Origin: Lingula anatina
Taxonomy: Eukaryota > Animalia > Brachiopoda
Direction of reading: 5' to 3'
Assembly (NCBI GenBank): GCA_051362555.1
Contig: CM120649.1
Coordinates: 5,828,001 to 5,892,000 of the forward strand
Length of the DNA stretch: 64,000 bases
Shown here: piece by piece, positions 19,105 through 63,095 of the stretch
How positions within the stretch are numbered: the first letter of the stretch is position 1
Layout: each line of letters opens with the position of its first letter
The notes under the pieces: model-generated
Told to the model about the DNA's origin: nothing
Seen by the model: the letters and a program-made list of their open reading frames with translations, nothing else
The model's database searches: none
Position numbers and translations under genes: made by a program

Positions 19105-20765
19105 CAGACTTGACATTTAATATGGAATATTTTTTTCCAAGTAATTTTTTATCGTTTTTTTCCTATTTTGCTGACTGATAAATAAAAATAAGGATTAAAA
19201 TCGTGTTTTAATAACTTTAAATTATCGCTTTGATGTCATTGGGACATCAATTCATTAATGGAATTCGCCAGAGAAGCAAACAAAAACACATTGCCTATTC
19301 TATGCCATACGACTTCCATTAAAAGAGATATTTTGGATCTCCATATTTTCCAAATTATCTTCTGTAAAAGAGTTATACGCTCCATAAAAGACCCTCATGT
19401 CAATTGCTAGTCACAAGAATGGTCGCTGTTACGCCTGGCCTCTTCTGGCTGTTGCCAGCCCTCTCGGGCGGCAAGGCATTCCTTGGGGTAGGTTTTTAGA
19501 GTTCAATCGGGAATAATATTCTAGGCATCGGTCTAAAATTGTCCAATTTGGTCCAGTTTTGTTGTAGGACATGTAGGCAGTTGATTCGGCGAGTAATGGC
19601 CTACCGAAATATTGTCTATGTGGTTCAAATGTGGCGATTTTGATGACCAGGGTAGCTGCTCATTCCCTTGGTTCTGTAAGTTATCTGCTATTAAAAGTGC
19701 TCTGTGTGAACCGGCAACCTCACCGTGCAACCTAAAATCGTTCCTAAGGTGTCCCCTATCAAATGATAGTCAAGTGGTTCCGAGATTATCCCTTAATTTG
19801 ATCTGGTTCAGGTTTTCGTCGATGACTACCATTGGTGTTTTGGCACCAATGTGGTATCCACTCCAAATACTGACGCTGTCAATCACCCTTGTCACTTTAG
19901 ACCCGGCATATGCTTCGTCGTAGGTCTCTTCTGGACAACTGTAAACTCTGTTTTGACTAATTGGGCGGTACAGGTGAAATCTGACCTCAATAAAGAAAGT
20001 CACGCAGTTTCAGTGTTCTACCCAGAAACGGCCATGGCCCCCAATTCATTAGAGAAACAGACGACGATGTTTTGCTGTTTACAGTGGGTGCCTCGGAGGT
20101 CGTTTGGTGTTCTTACCTGCTAAAACCAGTTTGGTGTTCGCTAAGGGCTTTAAAAAACGCATTTTGGTGGCAATTTACCCCTCGTTCTGACCGGACTAAG
20201 TGTTTTTTGTTTAGTTGCAGCAGCGTATCCCGAAAGACAGTGGGTCCTGTACCCTGTAGGTAAGATTTTGATACATTGGGGGTGACCTCTGTGTAGGTGC
20301 ATCAGTCTGGGCATTACTCTTTAAAACTGTGGGGACCGTTCCGTTTGGCGCTATGATCTGTCTGGTAATGTCTGTCTTTTTCGCGCCATTCTGCCATAGA
20401 TTAACAAATTTGTAATGCACTACTTGACTCATCTTACGCACTGCAAAACTGACCGCTTGCATGCAAAATTTCAAATTCTTCTATGCAGTGGTTGCCGACA
20501 TAAAGGTACTTTTTTGACAGAACCAAGCTTTGCCTAAGCCAAGCTTTGACCAGCCTAAAGGAACACTACCCAACTAAATCACTACATATTACATAATATA
20601 GCAGCGCAACAGACATGAAAGTCAGTTAATTGGTAGCGACACACCTGACTACACACTTCTCCATTCACAAATCTTATATGAGATCGGAGTTTTTTGAAAA
20701 AAGAACGCATTTTTACCTAGACATACCTTCGAAACTGAAATATTCCATATTAAATGTCAAGTCTG
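19105..20765 (-). mobile_element. Decayed Tc1/mariner DNA transposon
   Basis: 28-bp TIR CAGACTTGACATTTAATATGGAATATTT with TA on both sides; broken transposase frames include LPWSSKSPHLNHIDNI (Tc1 WPxxSPDLNPIEN motif). Confidence 0.9.
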
Positions 20766-43786: not shown

Positions 43787-45284
43787 GAGTACATACATGT
43801 ATGTGGCATTAAAAAACTTTAAAGATAAAATCATGCGAAAAGTCAGGCAGTCCCAATTACTGACCCCAGATAAGCAGTAATTCAAACATGGCATTTTCAC
43901 ACATATATCATCTTAAATTGATAATAAATATACATAATATGGCATCATTCTTGACATACTCAAATACAGTCTGATGGCGTATCAGTATGCCATATAAAAT
44001 ATCTTATCATCACAACTGGGAAATAAAACACTGTGGCCTGCTATTAATCAATAATCGATATCTCAATAGGAGGCTGTGTTATGTAAGGTATGTACTAGTA
44101 GGGGCCTAACCTTAATTACATTACAGATGTAGCTTGGATTGCACTGAGTTATTTATTTCAATCAGATCTGCAATTCTAATGAAGAACCAATTACTATACT
44201 GACTATGGGGTCATCCATTTCATTATAATTTTCACAAGTCTAGGGGGAGGGGATTAATGTCCTCTCTTCATCTTTGGGGAAAATAATGAAAATGATGATA
44301 TCCAAATTGCTGTCAAAGGTTTTCATTTTTGGCTTTTCATCTGGTGCTCTCTGGGGGTGGGGGGTGTCTGGAAAAAAGTATACCTATTATACATGTTGAA
44401 AAATGTTGATGATAAAAAACCCTAGACCCCAGGGTGAAAGTTGTGAAAACTAAATATCCTAGAAACGTATACAGCTGGCAGTTTTTCATTGCATATATTA
44501 TATACCATATGAAAAAACATCAAAATTTAGATTGAAAATCCTGAAATCAGGCATAATTCTGAAAAATTTCACCCATGTTTACAACTGTCTTCTAAGGTCT
44601 GAGTCACAAGGGGCCAACTCTACTCTCTTTTATCCTCTCTTCCTCCTTCAGCAACATCCAAGATCTGCTGAAGTTTCAGACAGACTCACTTACCAAGTAT
44701 GTGCTATCAATTCTCTATTCTAGCAAAATTTCGACAAAAACTTCTTTCAAACCAACTTGGCATGTTGTGGATCAATATAATTGTCATATACTATACAGTT
44801 TTAAAGTACATGTGCATCTCCACTATAGAAAACATATACGCTGGTAGAGAGTAAAGTACTAGTATGCTGAAAACATGTTTATACCTGTATATGAACAGGT
44901 ATGTAATGTGAGTACAGCAAGGTGAAAATTAGCCTCAGGTTGACCTCCATATTCACTACAGCTTAAAACCTCACAGTGAGGCAAGGTGGAAAGGTGTGTT
45001 CAGATCTGTATATGAGCAGGTATGTAGTAAGGCGAGGCGAAAAACATATTCACTTCAAAAGCTGTATGTAAAGCTGTATGTAAAGCTGTATGCCAAAAGA
45101 GTTCCGGTTAACTGAATTGCCTATCTACCTACCAACCAGTTCAGGTTGCCTAATGGGGCTATCAGTTTTTTTCACCACTGTGTGGCGCGCGTGTTTTAGT
45201 TGGGGTACTTTTGCGCATGCGCGTACTTTCTCGTGTGTTTGCAGTTTCATTTTTAATCTGACGCTGTAAATATCGCTCTAAATA

Positions 45285-46620
45285 ATGCCAGGATACTGTT
45301 GTGTTCTGGAATGTACATCGTCAACAGGAGGTCATTCTTTCCGAAAGACACAAAGCAAAGTTACCAGTGGAGAGTTGCCATCAGGAGGGTTGATTCTACA
45401 TCAAAAACACTATGGAAACCAAAGGCACATGACAAAGTCTGTTTCCTCCACTTTCGTGAGGAAGATTACACTTCTACGTAAGTTGTACTTGCTGTTGTCG
45501 CTTTTAGTATTAATAATGAGTTTGTCAACTTATTCATTAGGTCTTTGTTATCGATGTTTAAGTAATTATATCGTGTAACGTGCTTAGAATGTTAATTTTA
45601 AGACATTCTTCACCTAGCATTATGTAGCGATTTTGGGGGGGTGGGGGGGGTGGGGAGAAAACACTCTACGACTAAGCTACCGAGCCCGGGTCAACCCCGA
45701 CCAGCCAATACAATTATTTCTTCGTTTTTATATGATAATCCATGAGGTTTTTTAAAGGCCACGTTTTCAAATTAAGACAACTTGATTTTAATTGTATTAA
45801 TAATCGTTATGTGCACTCCTTTTGCAGATGAGAGAAAAAGACTGAAGCCAGGAACGATACCATATTTCCATTTAATAAAGTGAAAGACGTACTATCATCA
45901 GCCGTCTAGCTAAACGCTGCGAAGTATCAGATCCGGTGACAGTAGGCCTACTAACAGCTCCTGATTATATTCATGGAGGTAAATATAACGCATGATATAA
46001 TAACAGATTTAAAAATAAAATGTTTCTTTTTATTTGTATAATTATCTGTGTAAATACTAAAAAACCGAGAGACGGACTAAAGGGGACAAGAGGCAGTCAG
46101 ATCTGCGTCATTTCTGTCATCTACACCGATTTTATGTGTTAATTAATACATGAAGTATTTTTCTTTGTGTAATTTATTAACTTGTGTATTTATTTTTTGT
46201 TGTATCCTATAGGTTGAGTCTCAAGCAGATGAAGCAGTGGAAGACAAACATGAAGACTGCCCTGCTGAGAGCCAAAAAGAAAGTACAGCTTCCCAGTGTG
46301 ATATCATTACATCATCAGACACAAGAGAAAGCATCATGCTGTACCAGCAAAATGCAAAGGCTGTCCAGTATCTAACTGGATTTAGTCATTGTGAACACTT
46401 CATGTTGTTTTTCAATTGCCTTGGACCAGCAGCTCACCGCTTGAATTTCAAATGTTTGTCACCAGAGGACCAGTGTTTTTTGACCATTATGCATTTTGAC
46501 CGTTTCAAGCTATCGGTAACAACGGTGTCAGAAATAAAACGCACATGGATCAACTTTGTTTTTCCAGCTCAGTGAAATGAACATTTAGCCAGAACGTGAC
46601 ATTGTTGACGACTATATGCC
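45285..46620 (+). pseudogene. THAP-HTH transposase remnant (frameshifted, DDE core deleted)
   Basis: MPGYCCVLEC...HSF/PKD...WRVAIRR...W.P...VCFLHFREEDY, intron, RKRLKPGTIP; later QYLTGF...LSPEDQCFLT...FKLSVTTVSEIKRTWINF. Confidence 0.85.
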
Positions 46621-50115: not shown

Positions 50116-52846
50116 TCAACCTTAGTATGATCCATCTTAGCAGACAGTTTGGGATTGGTTTCATAAAACAGGTTAAGTCCCAAAACTTGTCTAAACATTT
50201 GGACCCCAAATTAAGGCTACTTTAAATTATTTTAACACAAACCAATAGTTGTCCACCTGTATAAAGTAAGTAACCAGTTGGAAACGCCAACAATCCCTCT
50301 CCTGTTATAAAACTGGCACAGCATTTCATCAATTATACTATTACTACCCCAGTACTACCAATTTATCTTCTGTGAAAGTAGACCAACATTTCGCTTGAAA
50401 TGTTAAGAACAGTTTCTGTCTATTTTTATGAATCCACCCCATGGTGACAATAACTCCACCATAGGAGGCCTAAAGTCGCCTTCTGAAAATTTTATTCCAG
50501 TAAAGGCAGTTCCACCATTAAGCAAGGAACAAGACAAACCTTTGATGCCCCATGGGGTGCTAATCAAAATCAGGCGTGAAACAGACAGATGGATGGATGC
50601 ATGAGCGGATGTATAAAGCCCACACATGAAATTCCATTCCGCTGGAACCACGCTGGAAACACGACTTGGGCATTATCCTGCAACCTGACCTCAGAGAACC
50701 CACTGTGCAACTGTGCACCATATAACCAAATCAATGACAAATTAAATTTCGCATCTGGTGGTGCATCACTGGGCCTGTTCCTATAAGATCTAATTCTATT
50801 TGATTCCAATGAGTCATCAGAAGAATATAAGGCCATCCCAGTCTGACTTAAAGTTCAGCATTCAGTATGACATTATATATATTAAAATTATCAAAAAATA
50901 AAATATTCAAAATATAAACAAACCCATGACATGAAAAAAGTTTTAGACACCATACAGCCTGTTTCTAGTGTGTGGATCTGAATCCCTACCTCAGCAAGCC
51001 ACCAGATCTCTACCCATAAGGAGCCAACCTAATCCCCCTATTGTCCCGCCCAGTGCCAACATAGCTATGGCTGAATTCTGAACAGTGGACTAACTAGTCT
51101 GAGGGTCAAATATGGCAACCCATTAAAAAGCTGTCTAATCCATTAATAGACACTATAGATTCCCATATTTGAAGCTGGGACTAATAAGTCCACTGTTCTG
51201 AATGTGGCCTGATGGCTTACTAGTACTGTGCAGAGAAATCAAAATCAGATGGCTGAGATACCATGAACTAAGTTAGGTGAGCCTAAATCCAGAGGAAACA
51301 GACCTTGTAAGAAGTGTCTGTACATTCAGATAGCTGAAGAATGTGTGGCTATGATGCTGAGTAATTGTCCACAAAACAGCAAAATCTTTGCCATTTAGAC
51401 ATTAAACAGCCGTAAAGACCTACAGTAGGTATATACTGATAAAGAGCTACATATACTGTGCACACTTCTCTTTACTGGTAACATTCACAACTCTTTTCAA
51501 ACAAAGATAAAATTGTTTAAAGAAAGCCACATAAACGATGACAATTCTTCATCTGAGATTCAAAACTCCACAATAAATTCATGTGAATAACACGAAAATG
51601 TAATAAACTGCATTTTACAGCCAAAACAGCAGTTCATCATAATATCTGGATATCGCGAGATATTGGACCATCAATAATTGCTACCCTACATAATAATGTC
51701 TTAAGAGATTATTACTAAAAACATACTCTTTTTTTTTTAATCAATCGATTAATTTTAAATGTTGGAACAGATTTATTAACCATGGTAAGAATGGGAAATT
51801 ATCAATTGCCAGAGGAAATTTTGTTTTATGGCATTTTTCATGGCAAAATGAAAAGTTGTCTTCCCTTTAAACTTTGCCAAATTAATGTCTGGGTCATGCT
51901 GAGAATTTCCAAATGTATTCGCTGGAGTATAAAGGCCAATACTTATCACTCAAATCATTTACCTCAGCAATTATAGAAAGATTACAGAGGAATGACTGCA
52001 CATTAGTTTGTATCAACTTCCTGGGTTCAGAGGCATGATTGCAAATTAGTTTGTTCTAACTTCCTGGGCTCAGAACTTTATGATAAGTTTTTTTTTCTAA
52101 TATCTAAAATGTTATTTTCCTCTTTTTTTAATCAAACAGATGTCACCCTTTTTTTTTTTAACCAAACTGCCAAATATGGATTTTCAATTTGAGTAAAAAT
52201 ATGATCTCCCTTACAAGTACTTTTGAATCTCTACTCATCTGGCTTATGGAGAAGCCACATTCCAGCTTTTTACATCCCCCATCATTGCACCATTTCCATG
52301 TAGACTGCTGGCATTTCAGATGTGATAAAACAGACTCTCACTTCAAATGTCAATCTCTTTTTTATTGCTTTTCATGTAGCACCATTAAAAAAACATAGAG
52401 CTGACTATCTGCAGAAATTTAAAGCAACACAAACTGTATCAAATAACCGTATTCCATGATAATTCTTTGATGACAATTAGTATGCACATGAATTGAGAAC
52501 CATCATTATTGGAAAAAATGATATTGTACTCTATGAACAAGTTAATACACAAGGGAAACTATTGTCGCATATATTTTGGAGAATTGCTGCTTGTTGCAAT
52601 AAACAAAATAACGAAATCATTACAGCTAACACTTTATAGCAATTATTGCTCTGTAGTACAGAAATTCATTGTAGTACAGAAATTCATTCCTGGAAAAATG
52701 GGGCAGTTTTCATTAATAACTCCAGAATTTATACCTGTTTAACACCGTTTGACCTTCTCCACCCATCTCCCAACAAAAAGGTCTGATAATAGATCATGAA
52801 AAGATTTCTCAGGCAAATACAACATTTTATTATTCCCAGAGAAGAA

Positions 52847-53269
52847 TGGTTCAGAGACCTGGTCACTGAATGCCTCCATGGAACACAAGCTACAAGTAGC
52901 TCAGAGAAAGATGGAAAGAATTATGTTGAACATCAATCCAAGAGAGCGGAAAACGAATGTATGGTTACGTGAACAGACCAAAATTAAGGACGTACTGCTC
53001 ACAGTTAAAGAAATGAAATGGAGGTGGGCAGGACATGTCAAAAGAATGAAGGACAATAGGTGGACAATCAGGCTTACAGAATGGACCCCAAGGTATGGAC
53101 AAAGAAAAAGAGGAAGGCCGGTCAAACGATGGAGGGATGAATTAGATGACTACTGGAAGTCTTGGAAGAAGAAACCTTGGCCAAACTGGAAATCTGAGGC
53201 TCTGGATAGGAAACAATGGAAAAAGCATGCTGAGGCCTTTGTCCAACAGTGGAACACTATAGGCTCTAA

Positions 53270-53302
<33 letters not shown>
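52847..53302 (+). mobile_element. 5'-truncated RTE-clade LINE
   Basis: GSETWSL...QRKMER...KWRWAGHV...RGRP.KRW C-terminus; (TGA)n tail; TSD AGAGAAGAA at 52838 and 53303. Confidence 0.92.
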
Positions 53303-59348: not shown

Positions 59349-59861
59349 GTCACGAATCCGCTGGTGTCCGGTGGGGAGAAGTGATTCTGTGATGACCAGG
59401 GCCACTGTTAGCTGTGCAATCCATACACACGTATCTGCCATTGGAAACGTAGGTACTCCGAAAATGCAAATTTACTAGACACAGGTTCAAACAAACTAAT
59501 GAGCAATTGCTCCAAAAATAATACGAACATTCACACTTTTTATGTACCGATCATTCAAACATAAAGATATAAACGTAAATTGAAGTATAAAGGCGTGATT
59601 ATTTTTGCATGGTACTAGAAAATGTGTGAAGCACTAGTCAGTTTTCCCGATATATCCAATATTAAAGTATCTACCAACTAGTTGTGCTTCCCTTGTTAAG
59701 CTTCCAATGCAATGTAAGGATTGTTTGTTCTGTTTTGTTTGTATTTTCAGTTCTAGTTAAATACATAATGCATTCAAGTAGGCCTAAATCCATTAATCCA
59801 TCGTCACGTAGCTGCATGGACTTTGTATTGAAACGTAACATCGTGAATGAAAGGCATTATT

Positions 59862-60603
59862 TCAATTCATATGGGGAAAGTTTTCGTCCAAGTCATTCAT
59901 AAACGATGGGTCGTTGTCAACGTCTATATAAAAGGCGTGTTTATTCACGGAAATATGCACGGGGTTGGACGATTTTGGAACTACTGTAATGTTTCTATCC
60001 ATAGCGTATCTTAACAAAACCGTGGCAGGACTTGTACGATATTTCCTAGCAGCTGTCAAAACCCTTGGGTTATCGAAAAATGGGTTACTTTCTGGATATC
60101 CTTCGTCAAGCCACTTAAAACCGAGCACGCTATGAGCCATAAATTGTATTCCATGCTTGGTGCAAAATTTGCGCAACTTTGTGTTTCTTTTTATCAAGTC
60201 AAACCTAGCTTGAAGAACGGAGACTGGAACTGTGGCTTTTTGTAACAGTTCTTTCAATTGCGATATTTTAAAATTACTGACTCCAATAGAACGAACAGTT
60301 CCCGTTTGGTTCAGTTCTTCCAGTGCTTCCCAAGATTCCTGCCACGTGCCTCTTTTCTCGTCTGCTTCACACTCGAATCCTTGTGTGTCACAAGATGGCG
60401 CTTTAATGAGAACCAGGTCGATGTAATCTGTCTTCAGGCGGTTCAGCGATCTTTCGATTGACTTTTTAGTTGCGTCTTTACCCAAATGTTTTGGATGAAC
60501 TTTAACAATTATAAAAACCTCTTCGCGTCTGCAATATGGATTCTGGGCTAAAATGGAACCAAGAGCCGCTTCGCTCTCATCTTCTGGATCTGTGTCAAAT
60601 AAC
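59862..60603 (-). CDS. JmjC/cupin-AKR fusion, terminal exon, aldo-keto reductase barrel
   Basis: LFDT...REEVFIIVKV...SLNRLKTDYIDLVLI...SIGVSNF...VVPKSSNP; stop TGA at 59862-59864. Confidence 0.95.
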
Positions 60604-60853
60604 CTGACAAAAATATGATATTAAAATGAATATAAATGTATATTAAGTAAGGTATGTGCATGGGTAAAAATATAGAGAAGGATCACTAATTTATTTACTC
60701 TATGATTTTTGAAAGTGGGTTTGTGAAAATTTAAAGTCATTAGCTCCTGTGCTTTGTAGCATGCGGTAAATAGATCATGTCTCGACCTCACCTGATCACA
60801 AATATAAAAATATACACTGATCATGCTGTGTTTAAACAGTAATTTTGTTTCAC

Positions 60854-60938
60854 CTGTAGCCGACTTTCAGCGCGTGTGGTATAGCTGTTTGCGCATCTTT
60901 GTGAGGCATTCCGCCGAGACCAAGACCCAACATCGGCA
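60854..60938 (-). CDS. JmjC/cupin-AKR fusion, AKR exon MPMLGLGLGGMPHKDAQTAIPHALKVGYR
   Basis: 'MPxLGLG...AL..GYR' AKR motif; phase 1 to 2. Confidence 0.93.
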
Positions 60939-61486
60939 CTAGAATTAAATTTTACAAAATTAAAAAAAAAAAAAAAAAAAAAATCATAAACTGATTATAC
61001 AGTGTTGCAGTACCGTGGTGTGCAACGTATGACCCCCACAAAGTTCAATGCGAGAGAATAGGTGTATTTTGTACCAAAACCACAGGGCTCGTCTTCTCAT
61101 ATTAAATTCAGTTTAGCTTTTCGGGTGTTTTTGTCTTCATCATTTACAAAAATGATAAGTTTATGGTATAAGAATGATAATTGGTTAAGTATATGTATTT
61201 GTTTAAACTTTTCACCTATGTATGAAAAGCCTTTCAAAGTACAACGTAATATAATATGCTTATTTTGAAAGTTTTTTGAAAGCTTATTTTGAACTCATCG
61301 CGCAGTCGTGCCTTCTTCAGCACAAATTGATGAGGTGAATGTTATAAATAAAATTATCTAAATGCCTCGCTGGCCCTAGATTATCCTTATTTTGTAAGAG
61401 TGTCTCATATCCCACTTTTGTATGTTCAGATTAACATATTCTAAACACAATATGATTTGGACCCGCTGCATCACAACTGTACATAC

Positions 61487-61627
61487 TTTCATATCCACTC
61501 TTCAATAAAAAAGGGTCGGTTTCTTCTTTCTCGTTCCACTGTTCCATAGCTGGCGGAGTGAGATACGGATACTTGGTTAGTACTTCTCTCACGGTTAAGT
61601 CCTCCATCCGAATATTGCACTCCAATT
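61487..61627 (-). CDS. JmjC/cupin-AKR fusion, linker exon ending in the AKR N-terminus (FLLKSGYE)
   Basis: TAG/GTATGT, 141 nt, phase 1 to 1; 'L.SG.xMP' is the start of the AKR fold. Confidence 0.88.
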
Positions 61628-61973
61628 CTAAGGAAAGCAAGCACAATTTATGATTCTCGGTAAAAAGAAAGCATGTTTTATTAATGATTTTATCATGTAA
61701 TTGTTTTCACTTTTGAATTATGAAAAGGTCATCAAAATATATTTTAAAAAGCACCAAATTTATGCAGTTTCCGATAAGTACCAACCAGCTTGCACGTTCA
61801 TGTCAGTGCTTATCACAAACCTTTAATAGGAGTGCTAACGCATGAATTTCGTGCTGAGATTAAACATATAGTAATCACGTAATCAAACAAGAACGGTTCC
61901 TCTATTTTACCCAATTTTACCAAATTTTCGAATGTATCACAAATAAAAAGAATAATATATTTCACAACCACAC

Positions 61974-62240
61974 CCGTTGGTTTCTGCTCTCGGAGTTTAA
62001 TGCAGCTTTCAATGTACTCCGCATCGTTGGAATCTGGACATTCCCACATACACCACAGGAAATTGATGAACACCGCCACGGCGATGTTGGGAGCGCCCCC
62101 TTTTGTTCGCACTTGGTGGAACCAGCCCTCGGGTACATATATGATATCCCCGGCCTCAAGTGTGGTATTATAGATGACGATTTTTGAAACATCAGGGAAT
62201 TTGGTCAAGTCCACCGCCTCCTGGTTTACTGGAGAAATAC
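61974..62240 (-). CDS. JmjC/cupin-AKR fusion, exon carrying the distal His (LEAGDIIYVPEGWFHQV)
   Basis: 'VDLxKFP...L.xGD.lY.P.gWxHxV' JmjC signature; 267 nt, phase 1 to 1. Confidence 0.93.
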
Positions 62241-62438
62241 CTGGAAATGGGATATACGTCAATAGTGAACTTTGATAATAATTACATAAAAATGACATAA
62301 CATATCATTAATAATAACGTTGCTTGCGAAAGATGACAATAATAATTATTATTGTTAACATAAAAGAAAAAGAGCACAGTCCCTTGTAAACCGCGAAGAT
62401 ATGCCTCGGTTTATTTAATATAAAATATAACATAATAC

Positions 62439-62482
<44 letters not shown>

Positions 62483-62495
62483 CAAAATGGTGTAC

Positions 62496-62661
62496 CATTA
62501 TGAGGTTCGAAGTCATCAGTATACAGGTATTTGCCGTCGCGGGGGGTAGTAAGGATCCAGTGACGCCCACCCACCACCTGGGCGAAGATGGTTTCCGTGA
62601 CGTCAAGATGAATGTCGGTGCTCGACCACCCGGCGTTGAAGAACATAGCTACTTGTTTCAG
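62496..62661 (-). CDS. JmjC/cupin-AKR fusion, exon carrying HxD (STDIHLDVTETIFAQVVGGRHW)
   Basis: TAG/GT, 166 nt, phase 0 to 1; JmjC 'T-x-x-H-x-D...Q-V-x-G-x-K/R-x-W' pattern. Confidence 0.92.
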
Positions 62662-62989
62662 CTAAAATTAAAAAAGTTTCCAAATATGTAATAATGATCG
62701 CAACCATGATTATGTTGCAAATGCTCAAAACCGATGGAGGGCAAGGATTTTTCTTAATTTTAATAATAATCATAAACGCTGGCCTAGGTGTTAAAGACGC
62801 TGCCGTGTTTAACTAATATATTTTAGATCTTATAAGCGTTGTGTTTAAAAAAAAACACAACTATATTTTAATAAGTTTATTTTGTTGCGTCATGATGTTG
62901 GTCAACCGAGTCAAACAGAACGAAAATGAGGAATGGTCTATATTTCAATAGGAAATATTCAATATTTTAACGCTTCATTCTCAACCTAC

Positions 62990-63095
62990 CATTTTCAGCA
63001 ACCCTTCACAAGCGACAAAACCCGGGAATGTGAGATCTTCAGCCATCTCTGGACTGATAGTGGAGTCCATATAGATCTTTTCCTTCCTATATGTA
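62990..63095 (-). CDS. JmjC/cupin-AKR fusion, exon TYRKEKIYMDSTISPEMAEDLTFPGFVACEGLLKM
   Basis: CAG/GTAGGT, phase 2 to 0; resembles the pre-core segment of cupin_8-type JmjC proteins. Upstream exons were not resolved. Confidence 0.85.

Follow-up and report, generated by a model that had tools for sequence, protein, structure and literature searches.

The window, a stretch of 64,000 nucleotides of the brachiopod Lingula anatina (assembly GCA_051362555.1, contig CM120649.1, positions 5,828,001 to 5,892,000), contains on its minus strand the gene LOC106153304, whose protein of 641 amino acids (XP_013382636.1; exon 6 is 100% identical) joins a JmjC domain of the Cupin_8 type, as found in 2-oxoglutarate (2OG) oxygenases, to an aldo-keto reductase (AKR) barrel. 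The fusion is ancient, and the Lingula protein keeps the iron triad of the JmjC domain and has lost two catalytic residues of the AKR barrel. As a preliminary description of this DNA had claimed, six exons with AG acceptors and five introns with GT donors yield one stop-free JmjC-AKR frame, of 501 amino acids and a stop codon; the other two frames of the joined exons contain 35 and 25 stops. Residues 1-140 of the LOC106153304 protein come from 5' exons past the window end. The features of the gene, all on the minus strand, are:

62990..63095, exon 1 in the window: residues 141-175, with the near-invariant Cys169 at 63010-63008
62496..62661, exon 2: JmjC domain, with the Fe ligands His193 (62610-62608) and Asp195 (62604-62602), Thr199 and Arg208 (62565-62563)
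61974..62240, exon 3: JmjC domain, with the third Fe ligand His272 (62118-62116); a helical linker begins
61487..61627, exon 4: linker, with the invariant Cys323 (61619-61617), and first strand of the AKR domain
60854..60938, exon 5: AKR domain, opening with a codon split A/TG
59862..60603, exon 6, the last coding exon: AKR barrel, with Asp398 (60596-60594), Lys429 (60503-60501) and Lys462 (60404-60402)
exon 6, further features: the invariant residues Cys466 and Cys473, and the stop codon (59864-59862)
59500..59861, 3' untranslated region: RNA reads reach at least to 59500

Exon by exon, Pfam finds Cupin_8 in exon 2 (E 2.4e-7) and exon 3 (E 3.6e-12) and Aldo_ket_red in exon 6 (E 1.5e-41), the domains that the preliminary description had named. 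No second copy of the JmjC-AKR gene was found in the window.

All five junctions are supported by RNA, by short reads only and with no single read spanning both domains seen. The RNA runs were chosen by species label, and run X4 is too shallow for joints. In the four runs of one tally, joint reads number 12, 16, 41 and 31 at junction 61974/61627; in the four runs of a second one they number 4, 0, 53 and 36 at 60854/60603, and 4, 0, 29 and 16 at 62990/62661. The junctions 61487/60938 and 62496/62240 are absent from the joint table of the second tally, from which rows near repeats were dropped; for these, loose read ends in the runs of the first tally match the next exon by eye, 6, 10, 52 and 38 of them at the former (with a one-base difference in two diverged runs) and 7, 10, 36 and 24 at the latter. 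The three junctions for which RNA reads had originally been proposed as a check (61974/61627, 61487/60938 and 60854/60603) are therefore all backed by reads. In the stranded runs X1 and X2 all reads have one orientation, which fits a minus-strand RNA, and loose read ends at 63095 continue, in a comparison by eye, into the preceding residues of protein P0001.

Between 59500 and 63095, reads of X1 and X2 match the window at 99% or better. For X7-X9, labelled as the same species, identity is mostly 90-99% and the differences are near-fixed; these reads appear to derive from a strongly diverged population or a cryptic species. A minor joint at 61631-61925 with non-canonical ends and 8 extra letters (three reads of X7, one of X8) probably reflects an indel in the intron, seen in unspliced RNA from that diverged population.

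The Met codon of the MPMLG motif is indeed split A/TG by an intron, from which it had been argued that the AKR part has no independent start. A second in-frame Met lies two codons after the split one, wholly within exon 5; however, intron 4 (60995-61474) has zero depth in all four runs, so no separate AKR start, and no alternative AKR-only first exon, was seen. If two neighbouring genes had been joined by a prediction error or by rare read-through, a similar gene model might result: short reads alone cannot demonstrate one full-length transcript, and AKR-only Lingula gene models exist (P0035, P0037). However, every junction is spliced in the reads, intron 4 is without depth, and a protein of the coral Pocillopora is 33% identical to the Lingula protein over 632 colinear residues that include both domains and the linker, an architecture that recurs in many phyla. 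An artefact of this kind is largely refuted and, in our view, hardly credible.

The Pocillopora protein belongs to the cluster of a 1071-amino-acid protein that was returned by a search with eight Lingula proteins. Used as a query itself, it gave 42 matches, all with lengths between 581 and 1852; a profile search of 1.84 billion representatives contributed the best 150 of 27,890. The order JmjC-then-AKR was found in the choanoflagellate Stephanoeca diplocostata, in the sponges Sycon and Oscarella, in the cnidarians Pocillopora, Oculina, Acropora, Montipora, Actinia, Nematostella, Paramuricea, Dendronephthya, Sanderia, Hydra, Clytia and Hydractinia, and in the deuterostomes Saccoglossus, Glandiceps and Branchiostoma, which contradicts the earlier view of a lineage-specific fusion. 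The domains of the fusions were verified with Pfam for six of the proteins and with our own profiles as well; among the named matches listed, none was a fusion from a vertebrate, arthropod, nematode or mollusc. In many members an ShK domain or a PQQ-like propeller is also present. The proteins of Pocillopora (XP_058958816.1), Nematostella (XP_048580544.1), Sycon (XP_065176613.1) and Glandiceps (XP_077998374.1) are homologous to the Lingula protein over both domains and the linker; these relatives keep the AKR Tyr and His, with an irregular Tyr spacing in a few of the rows, and ShK, a beta-propeller or a KDEL end is frequent among them; the Lingula protein has none of these additions.

When a careful tree is built from 81 AKR domains, 42 fused domains fall on one side of a branch with 97/86 support and 37 other AKRs fall apart from them. 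P0189 (an amphioxus AKR-propeller protein) and P0292, both without JmjC, lie on the fused side and were excluded from the groups after a quick tree had been seen; P0364 was counted as fused on a weak JmjC match (45 bits with our own profile, no Pfam match). All 12 Lingula rows group in a single clade (95/85), whose sister is P0274 on a long branch (100/97). In a quick tree of 53 JmjC rows, which mixes fused and unfused domains, some fragments and some JmjC-propeller proteins and excludes three truncated rows, Lingula again groups together (95), joins P0274 and P0284 (99) and stands near the deuterostome fusions (88). Both trees are rooted at the midpoint. Colinear homology, conserved cysteines and the shared AKR clade place the Lingula protein in an ancient Cupin_8-AKR family, and it descends from a fusion shared with the choanoflagellate. 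The distribution is consistent with a single origin of the fusion before animals but does not prove it, the choanoflagellate being represented by one transcriptome protein.

The Branchiostoma proteins P0167-P0169 and P0187-P0191 have JmjC-AKR-AKR-propeller and AKR-propeller forms, and those displayed end in KDEL. The sister AKR clade (P0285-P0305 and neighbours) mostly has N-terminal hydrophobic segments, often with ShK, and makes up a wider set of apparently secretory AKRs. No support was obtained for repeated fusion of the relatives of this AKR to other 2OG oxygenases: of 52 proteins scanned, 45 were AKR-bearing, and these included 12 with ShK, three with propellers and none with a P4H-type domain.

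No description of a JmjC-AKR fusion was found in the open full-text literature, which agrees with the preliminary remark that no characterised one was known. The architecture itself is already present in RefSeq and UniRef with both Pfam labels, in the records examined only as an automatic annotation that reads 'uncharacterized protein'. Both domains are well known; what is new is an unstudied, ancient fusion with reciprocal loss of its catalytic halves.

The reciprocal losses are apparent from a comparison of the active sites in 41 aligned rows, 12 of them from Lingula. All 19 rows that cover both sites and come from anthozoans, sponges, deuterostomes, Stephanoeca and others keep H-x-D, Asn, Lys and His of the JmjC domain, and the same 19 keep Asp, Lys and His of the AKR domain with a Tyr 4-8 residues past the Asp (a spacing that Nematostella, Stephanoeca and P0192 show in irregular form); a further row is cut short. 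In the eight rows of the medusozoan clade, the JmjC domain no longer has its first His or its Asp and the AKR domain retains Tyr, Lys and His, and among four medusozoan rows mean identity is 26% for JmjC versus 65% for AKR. Judged by these residues, Lingula is the mirror image of the medusozoans, with the JmjC triad kept and the AKR Tyr and His lost. P0274 shares the Lingula state, so the state is not unique to Lingula. P0274 and P0284 are the closest non-Lingula relatives; in P0274 the JmjC site carries the Arg and Thr found in Lingula, and the AKR is more eroded. Hydractinia has both a JmjC-propeller protein without AKR (LOC130630282, P0314/P0415), with an intact Fe site in the cluster representative P0314, and a JmjC-AKR protein whose Fe site is dead (LOC130641380, P0241); this pair possibly partitions the ancestral functions.

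In Lingula the gene has multiplied: at least 13 loci carry both domains and most of them cluster on three scaffolds, a count made from database proteins, of which some may be alleles or assembly duplicates. In one of these proteins, P0162, there is an internal repeat, perhaps a gene-model error.

The JmjC domain of the LOC106153304 protein matches PF13621 (Cupin_8) with 128 bits (cut-off 27.4), and the strands of the Cupin_8 double-stranded beta-helix are present in an AlphaFold2 model. The Fe triad HxD...H (His193, Asp195, His272) is kept in all 12 aligned Lingula paralogs. At the 2OG site, Thr190 occupies the conserved Thr/Ser position, but Asn is replaced by Thr199 and Lys by Arg208, changes that the preliminary description had overlooked together with the missing AKR Tyr and His. 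The best solved relatives are JMJD7, JMJD5, TYW5 and FIH (E 2.8e-19, 5.8e-17, 4.7e-13 and 7e-10), which share the triad and the Thr at the position of FIH Thr196; orthology to any one of them is not established by these matches. Unlike these proteins, the Lingula protein has an N-terminal hydrophobic segment and a fused AKR, and in JMJD7 and TYW5 the residues corresponding to Thr199 and Arg208 are Asn and Lys.

The C-terminal half is a (beta/alpha)8 AKR barrel with a match of 153 bits to PF00248 (Aldo_ket_red). Its closest known relatives are aldose reductase AKR1B1, yeast xylose reductase and 2,5-DKG reductase (Foldseek E 6.5e-26, target TM about 0.8; phmmer E 4.5e-34). With the Asp-Tyr-Lys-His tetrad and the cofactor contacts defined as in extracts of PMC8708191 and PMC6261992, and transferred via HMMER alignments, Asp398 and Lys429 are kept, the Tyr is absent and the His is replaced by Lys462. 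Tyr is missing from all 12 Lingula rows and the His position is taken by Lys (8), Gln (3) or Arg (1); this His is kept in all 28 rows that are not of the Lingula type. Asp398, Ser504, Asn505, Gln526, Ser553 (on the nicotinamide side), Lys605 and Asn615 align with cofactor contacts of xylose reductase; the stacking Tyr is a His, and the equivalents of Arg276 and Glu279 are changed, which holds for intact coral members too. Like its known relatives, the Lingula barrel thus keeps Asp, Lys and most nicotinamide contacts; unlike them, it lacks the equivalents of Tyr48 and His110, has a Cys pair in loop A, is fused to JmjC and is probably luminal. The proposal of an NAD(P)(H)-binding module is plausible on these residues. 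A coupling of hydroxylation to a working reductase, which had been part of the same proposal, is unlikely in Lingula because Tyr and His are absent.

A barrel rewired for catalysis, in which Lys462 and acidic residues would stand in for His and Tyr and hydroxylation would be followed by an NADP(H)-dependent step, is distinctly unlikely. Both sites are intact in 19 relatives, LOC106153304 retains Asp398, Lys429 and the cofactor residues, the segment that replaces the lost Tyr region is itself conserved in most Lingula paralogs, and a His-to-Glu rewiring is known from AKR1D1. On the other hand, Tyr and His are both lost, the His position varies between Lys, Gln and Arg, three paralogs (P0032, P0033, P0159) also lose cofactor contacts, and the medusozoans retain the fusion with a dead JmjC domain, so the fusion can persist without any need for coupling on a single chain.

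The loss of catalytic residues, the further erosion in these three paralogs and the long AKR branch of P0274 would also be expected if the barrel were a disappearing vestige, retained for no other reason than that it is not cleanly removable. This is more improbable still: in AKR codons the window and X7-X9 differ by 21 synonymous and 8 non-synonymous changes (188 and 661 sites), a rough ratio of about 0.11, as counted from the differences listed (27 in exons 5-6, among 40 of 113, plus 21 exonic), and a barrel under purifying selection is what this approximate figure suggests. The linker has 6 synonymous and 4 non-synonymous changes, the JmjC part of exon 3 has 8 and none. All 12 aligned paralogs have full-length barrels, and identity among Lingula paralogs is 62% for JmjC and 57% for AKR.

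AlphaFold2, run with 60 sequences, models the whole chain with a pLDDT (predicted local distance difference test) of 91.5, mostly above 90 along the chain, which also speaks against a vestigial barrel, and a pTM (predicted template modelling score) of 0.84; the latter suggests a fixed arrangement of the domains. The top 50 Foldseek rows were all single AKR domains (TMq at most 0.41) with none covering both domains, and the ESM Atlas gave a 0.77 lead to a cnidarian AKR/propeller cluster, which is under the reliability line. Cys169, Cys323, Cys466 and Cys473 are present in 40, 41, 41 and 41 of the 41 rows, and Cys542 is near-invariant too (40 of 41). Recovery of the 5' exons had been suggested as a test for a signal peptide; in the 641-amino-acid protein, whose N-terminus these exons encode, residues 7-23 are hydrophobic (KD13 2.09 at residue 7). 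Such an N-terminal segment is found in 35 of 36 N-complete family members and in none of 13 control AKRs; seven of the 36 end in -EL, four of them in KDEL, and N-glycosylation sequons recur. Hydrophobic N-termini, KDEL-like ends and four near-invariant cysteines make it likely that the family belongs to the secretory pathway. A precedent for a luminal location is JMJD8, described in an extract of PMC5684140 as a signal-peptide-bearing JmjC protein of the endoplasmic reticulum (ER) lumen; it is a JmjC-only protein without AKR and is likened to the Lingula protein by location, not by sequence comparison.

From these data we consider it probable that the Lingula protein is a luminal or extracellular Fe(II)/2OG oxygenase with a retained, non-catalytic pseudo-AKR module, its substrate and activity being predictions. 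The N-terminal segment would direct it to the secretory pathway, with the ER/Golgi lumen or the extracellular space as its place of action, where Cys169-Cys323 and Cys466-Cys473 may form disulfides. The JmjC site would bind Fe and 2OG, with Arg208 in the role of Lys, and hydroxylate a luminal substrate, most likely a secreted protein, as suggested by the kinship to JMJD5, JMJD7 and FIH and the presumed location. The barrel would stay folded against the JmjC domain as a binding or structural module predicted to be non-catalytic, and may bind NADP(H) or help to hold the substrate.

Several points weigh against such an oxygenase. The foremost is the altered 2OG site: the Asn position is Thr in 10 of 12 Lingula rows, Ile in one and Asn in one, the Lys position is Arg in all 12, and 11 of 12 rows have Ala at a later position where many relatives have Asn, so that use of 2OG by the Lingula domain is not assured. 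Furthermore, the signal segment was judged from hydropathy only, the Lingula copies have no KDEL end, so that the protein may be either anchored or secreted, and the cofactor contacts eroded in P0032, P0033 and P0159 indicate that NADP(H) binding is not required family-wide. If the JmjC domain is no longer a 2OG hydroxylase, it could be a metal site with another co-substrate or a hydrolytic role, or both halves could be binding-only. That Asn and Lys, kept in all 19 intact relatives, changed together with the later Asn on the stem of Lingula and P0274 would agree with this, as would the long stems of both domains and the title of JMJD5 in the PDB as a bifunctional peptidase. We nevertheless hold it to be unlikely, if to be taken seriously, because all 12 paralogs have the Fe triad unaltered and no non-synonymous change appears in the portion of exon 3 that was sampled from the JmjC domain. 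The same is indicated by the Thr at the Asn position of active KDM2/7 enzymes and by the C5-carboxylate Arg of PHD2 and AspH, although this Arg comes from a different strand. According to extracts of PMC10631261, the C5 carboxylate of 2OG is bound by Lys in FIH and JMJD5 and by Arg in PHD2 and AspH.

For the family as a whole, a further speculation, on balance an unlikely one, is an unrecognised two-step enzyme of the secretory pathway, older than animals, in which JmjC would hydroxylate a secreted protein or glycan and the AKR would oxidise or reduce the product with luminal NADP(H), and whose job lineages later split. As part of the same suggestion, hydrozoans would now have a fusion with dead JmjC and live AKR beside a paralog with live JmjC and no AKR, and in Lingula the barrel would have become a cofactor- or substrate-binding module and the gene would have multiplied for a lineage-specific secreted product. 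A role in the shell matrix is not claimed: the terms cupin, aldo and JmjC are absent from what was covered of three Lingula papers (supplement of PMC4595640, text and supplement of PMC13425148, text of PMC13121700), which thus lend it no support.

Elsewhere in the window, the following features were seen:

27817-27290, minus strand: open frame with a hydrophobic segment, without Pfam or PDB match; its end presumably resembles the first exon of a Na+/H+ exchanger
19430-20010, minus strand: GC-richer stretch in which open frames of different phases abut, without Pfam match; possibly a decayed gene or element
52800-53270, 45282-45575 and 46213-46572, plus strand: transposon-like fragments, the last with a weak HTH_Tnp_4 match (E 6.6e-4); we take a LINE/RTE C-terminus and a THAP-like start to be among them

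Much work has been devoted to JmjC oxygenases and to AKRs, for the most part as separate enzymes of the cytosol or nucleus. The family described here, which ranges from a choanoflagellate to amphioxus, joins the two and apparently does so in the secretory pathway; it offers a natural experiment: both sites are intact in corals, sponges and deuterostomes, JmjC is dead in medusozoans and AKR is dead in Lingula. Family members occur in two laboratory models, Nematostella and Hydra, and the three types of state side by side could reveal if there is a luminal hydroxylation-redox modification and what the role of a pseudo-AKR is.

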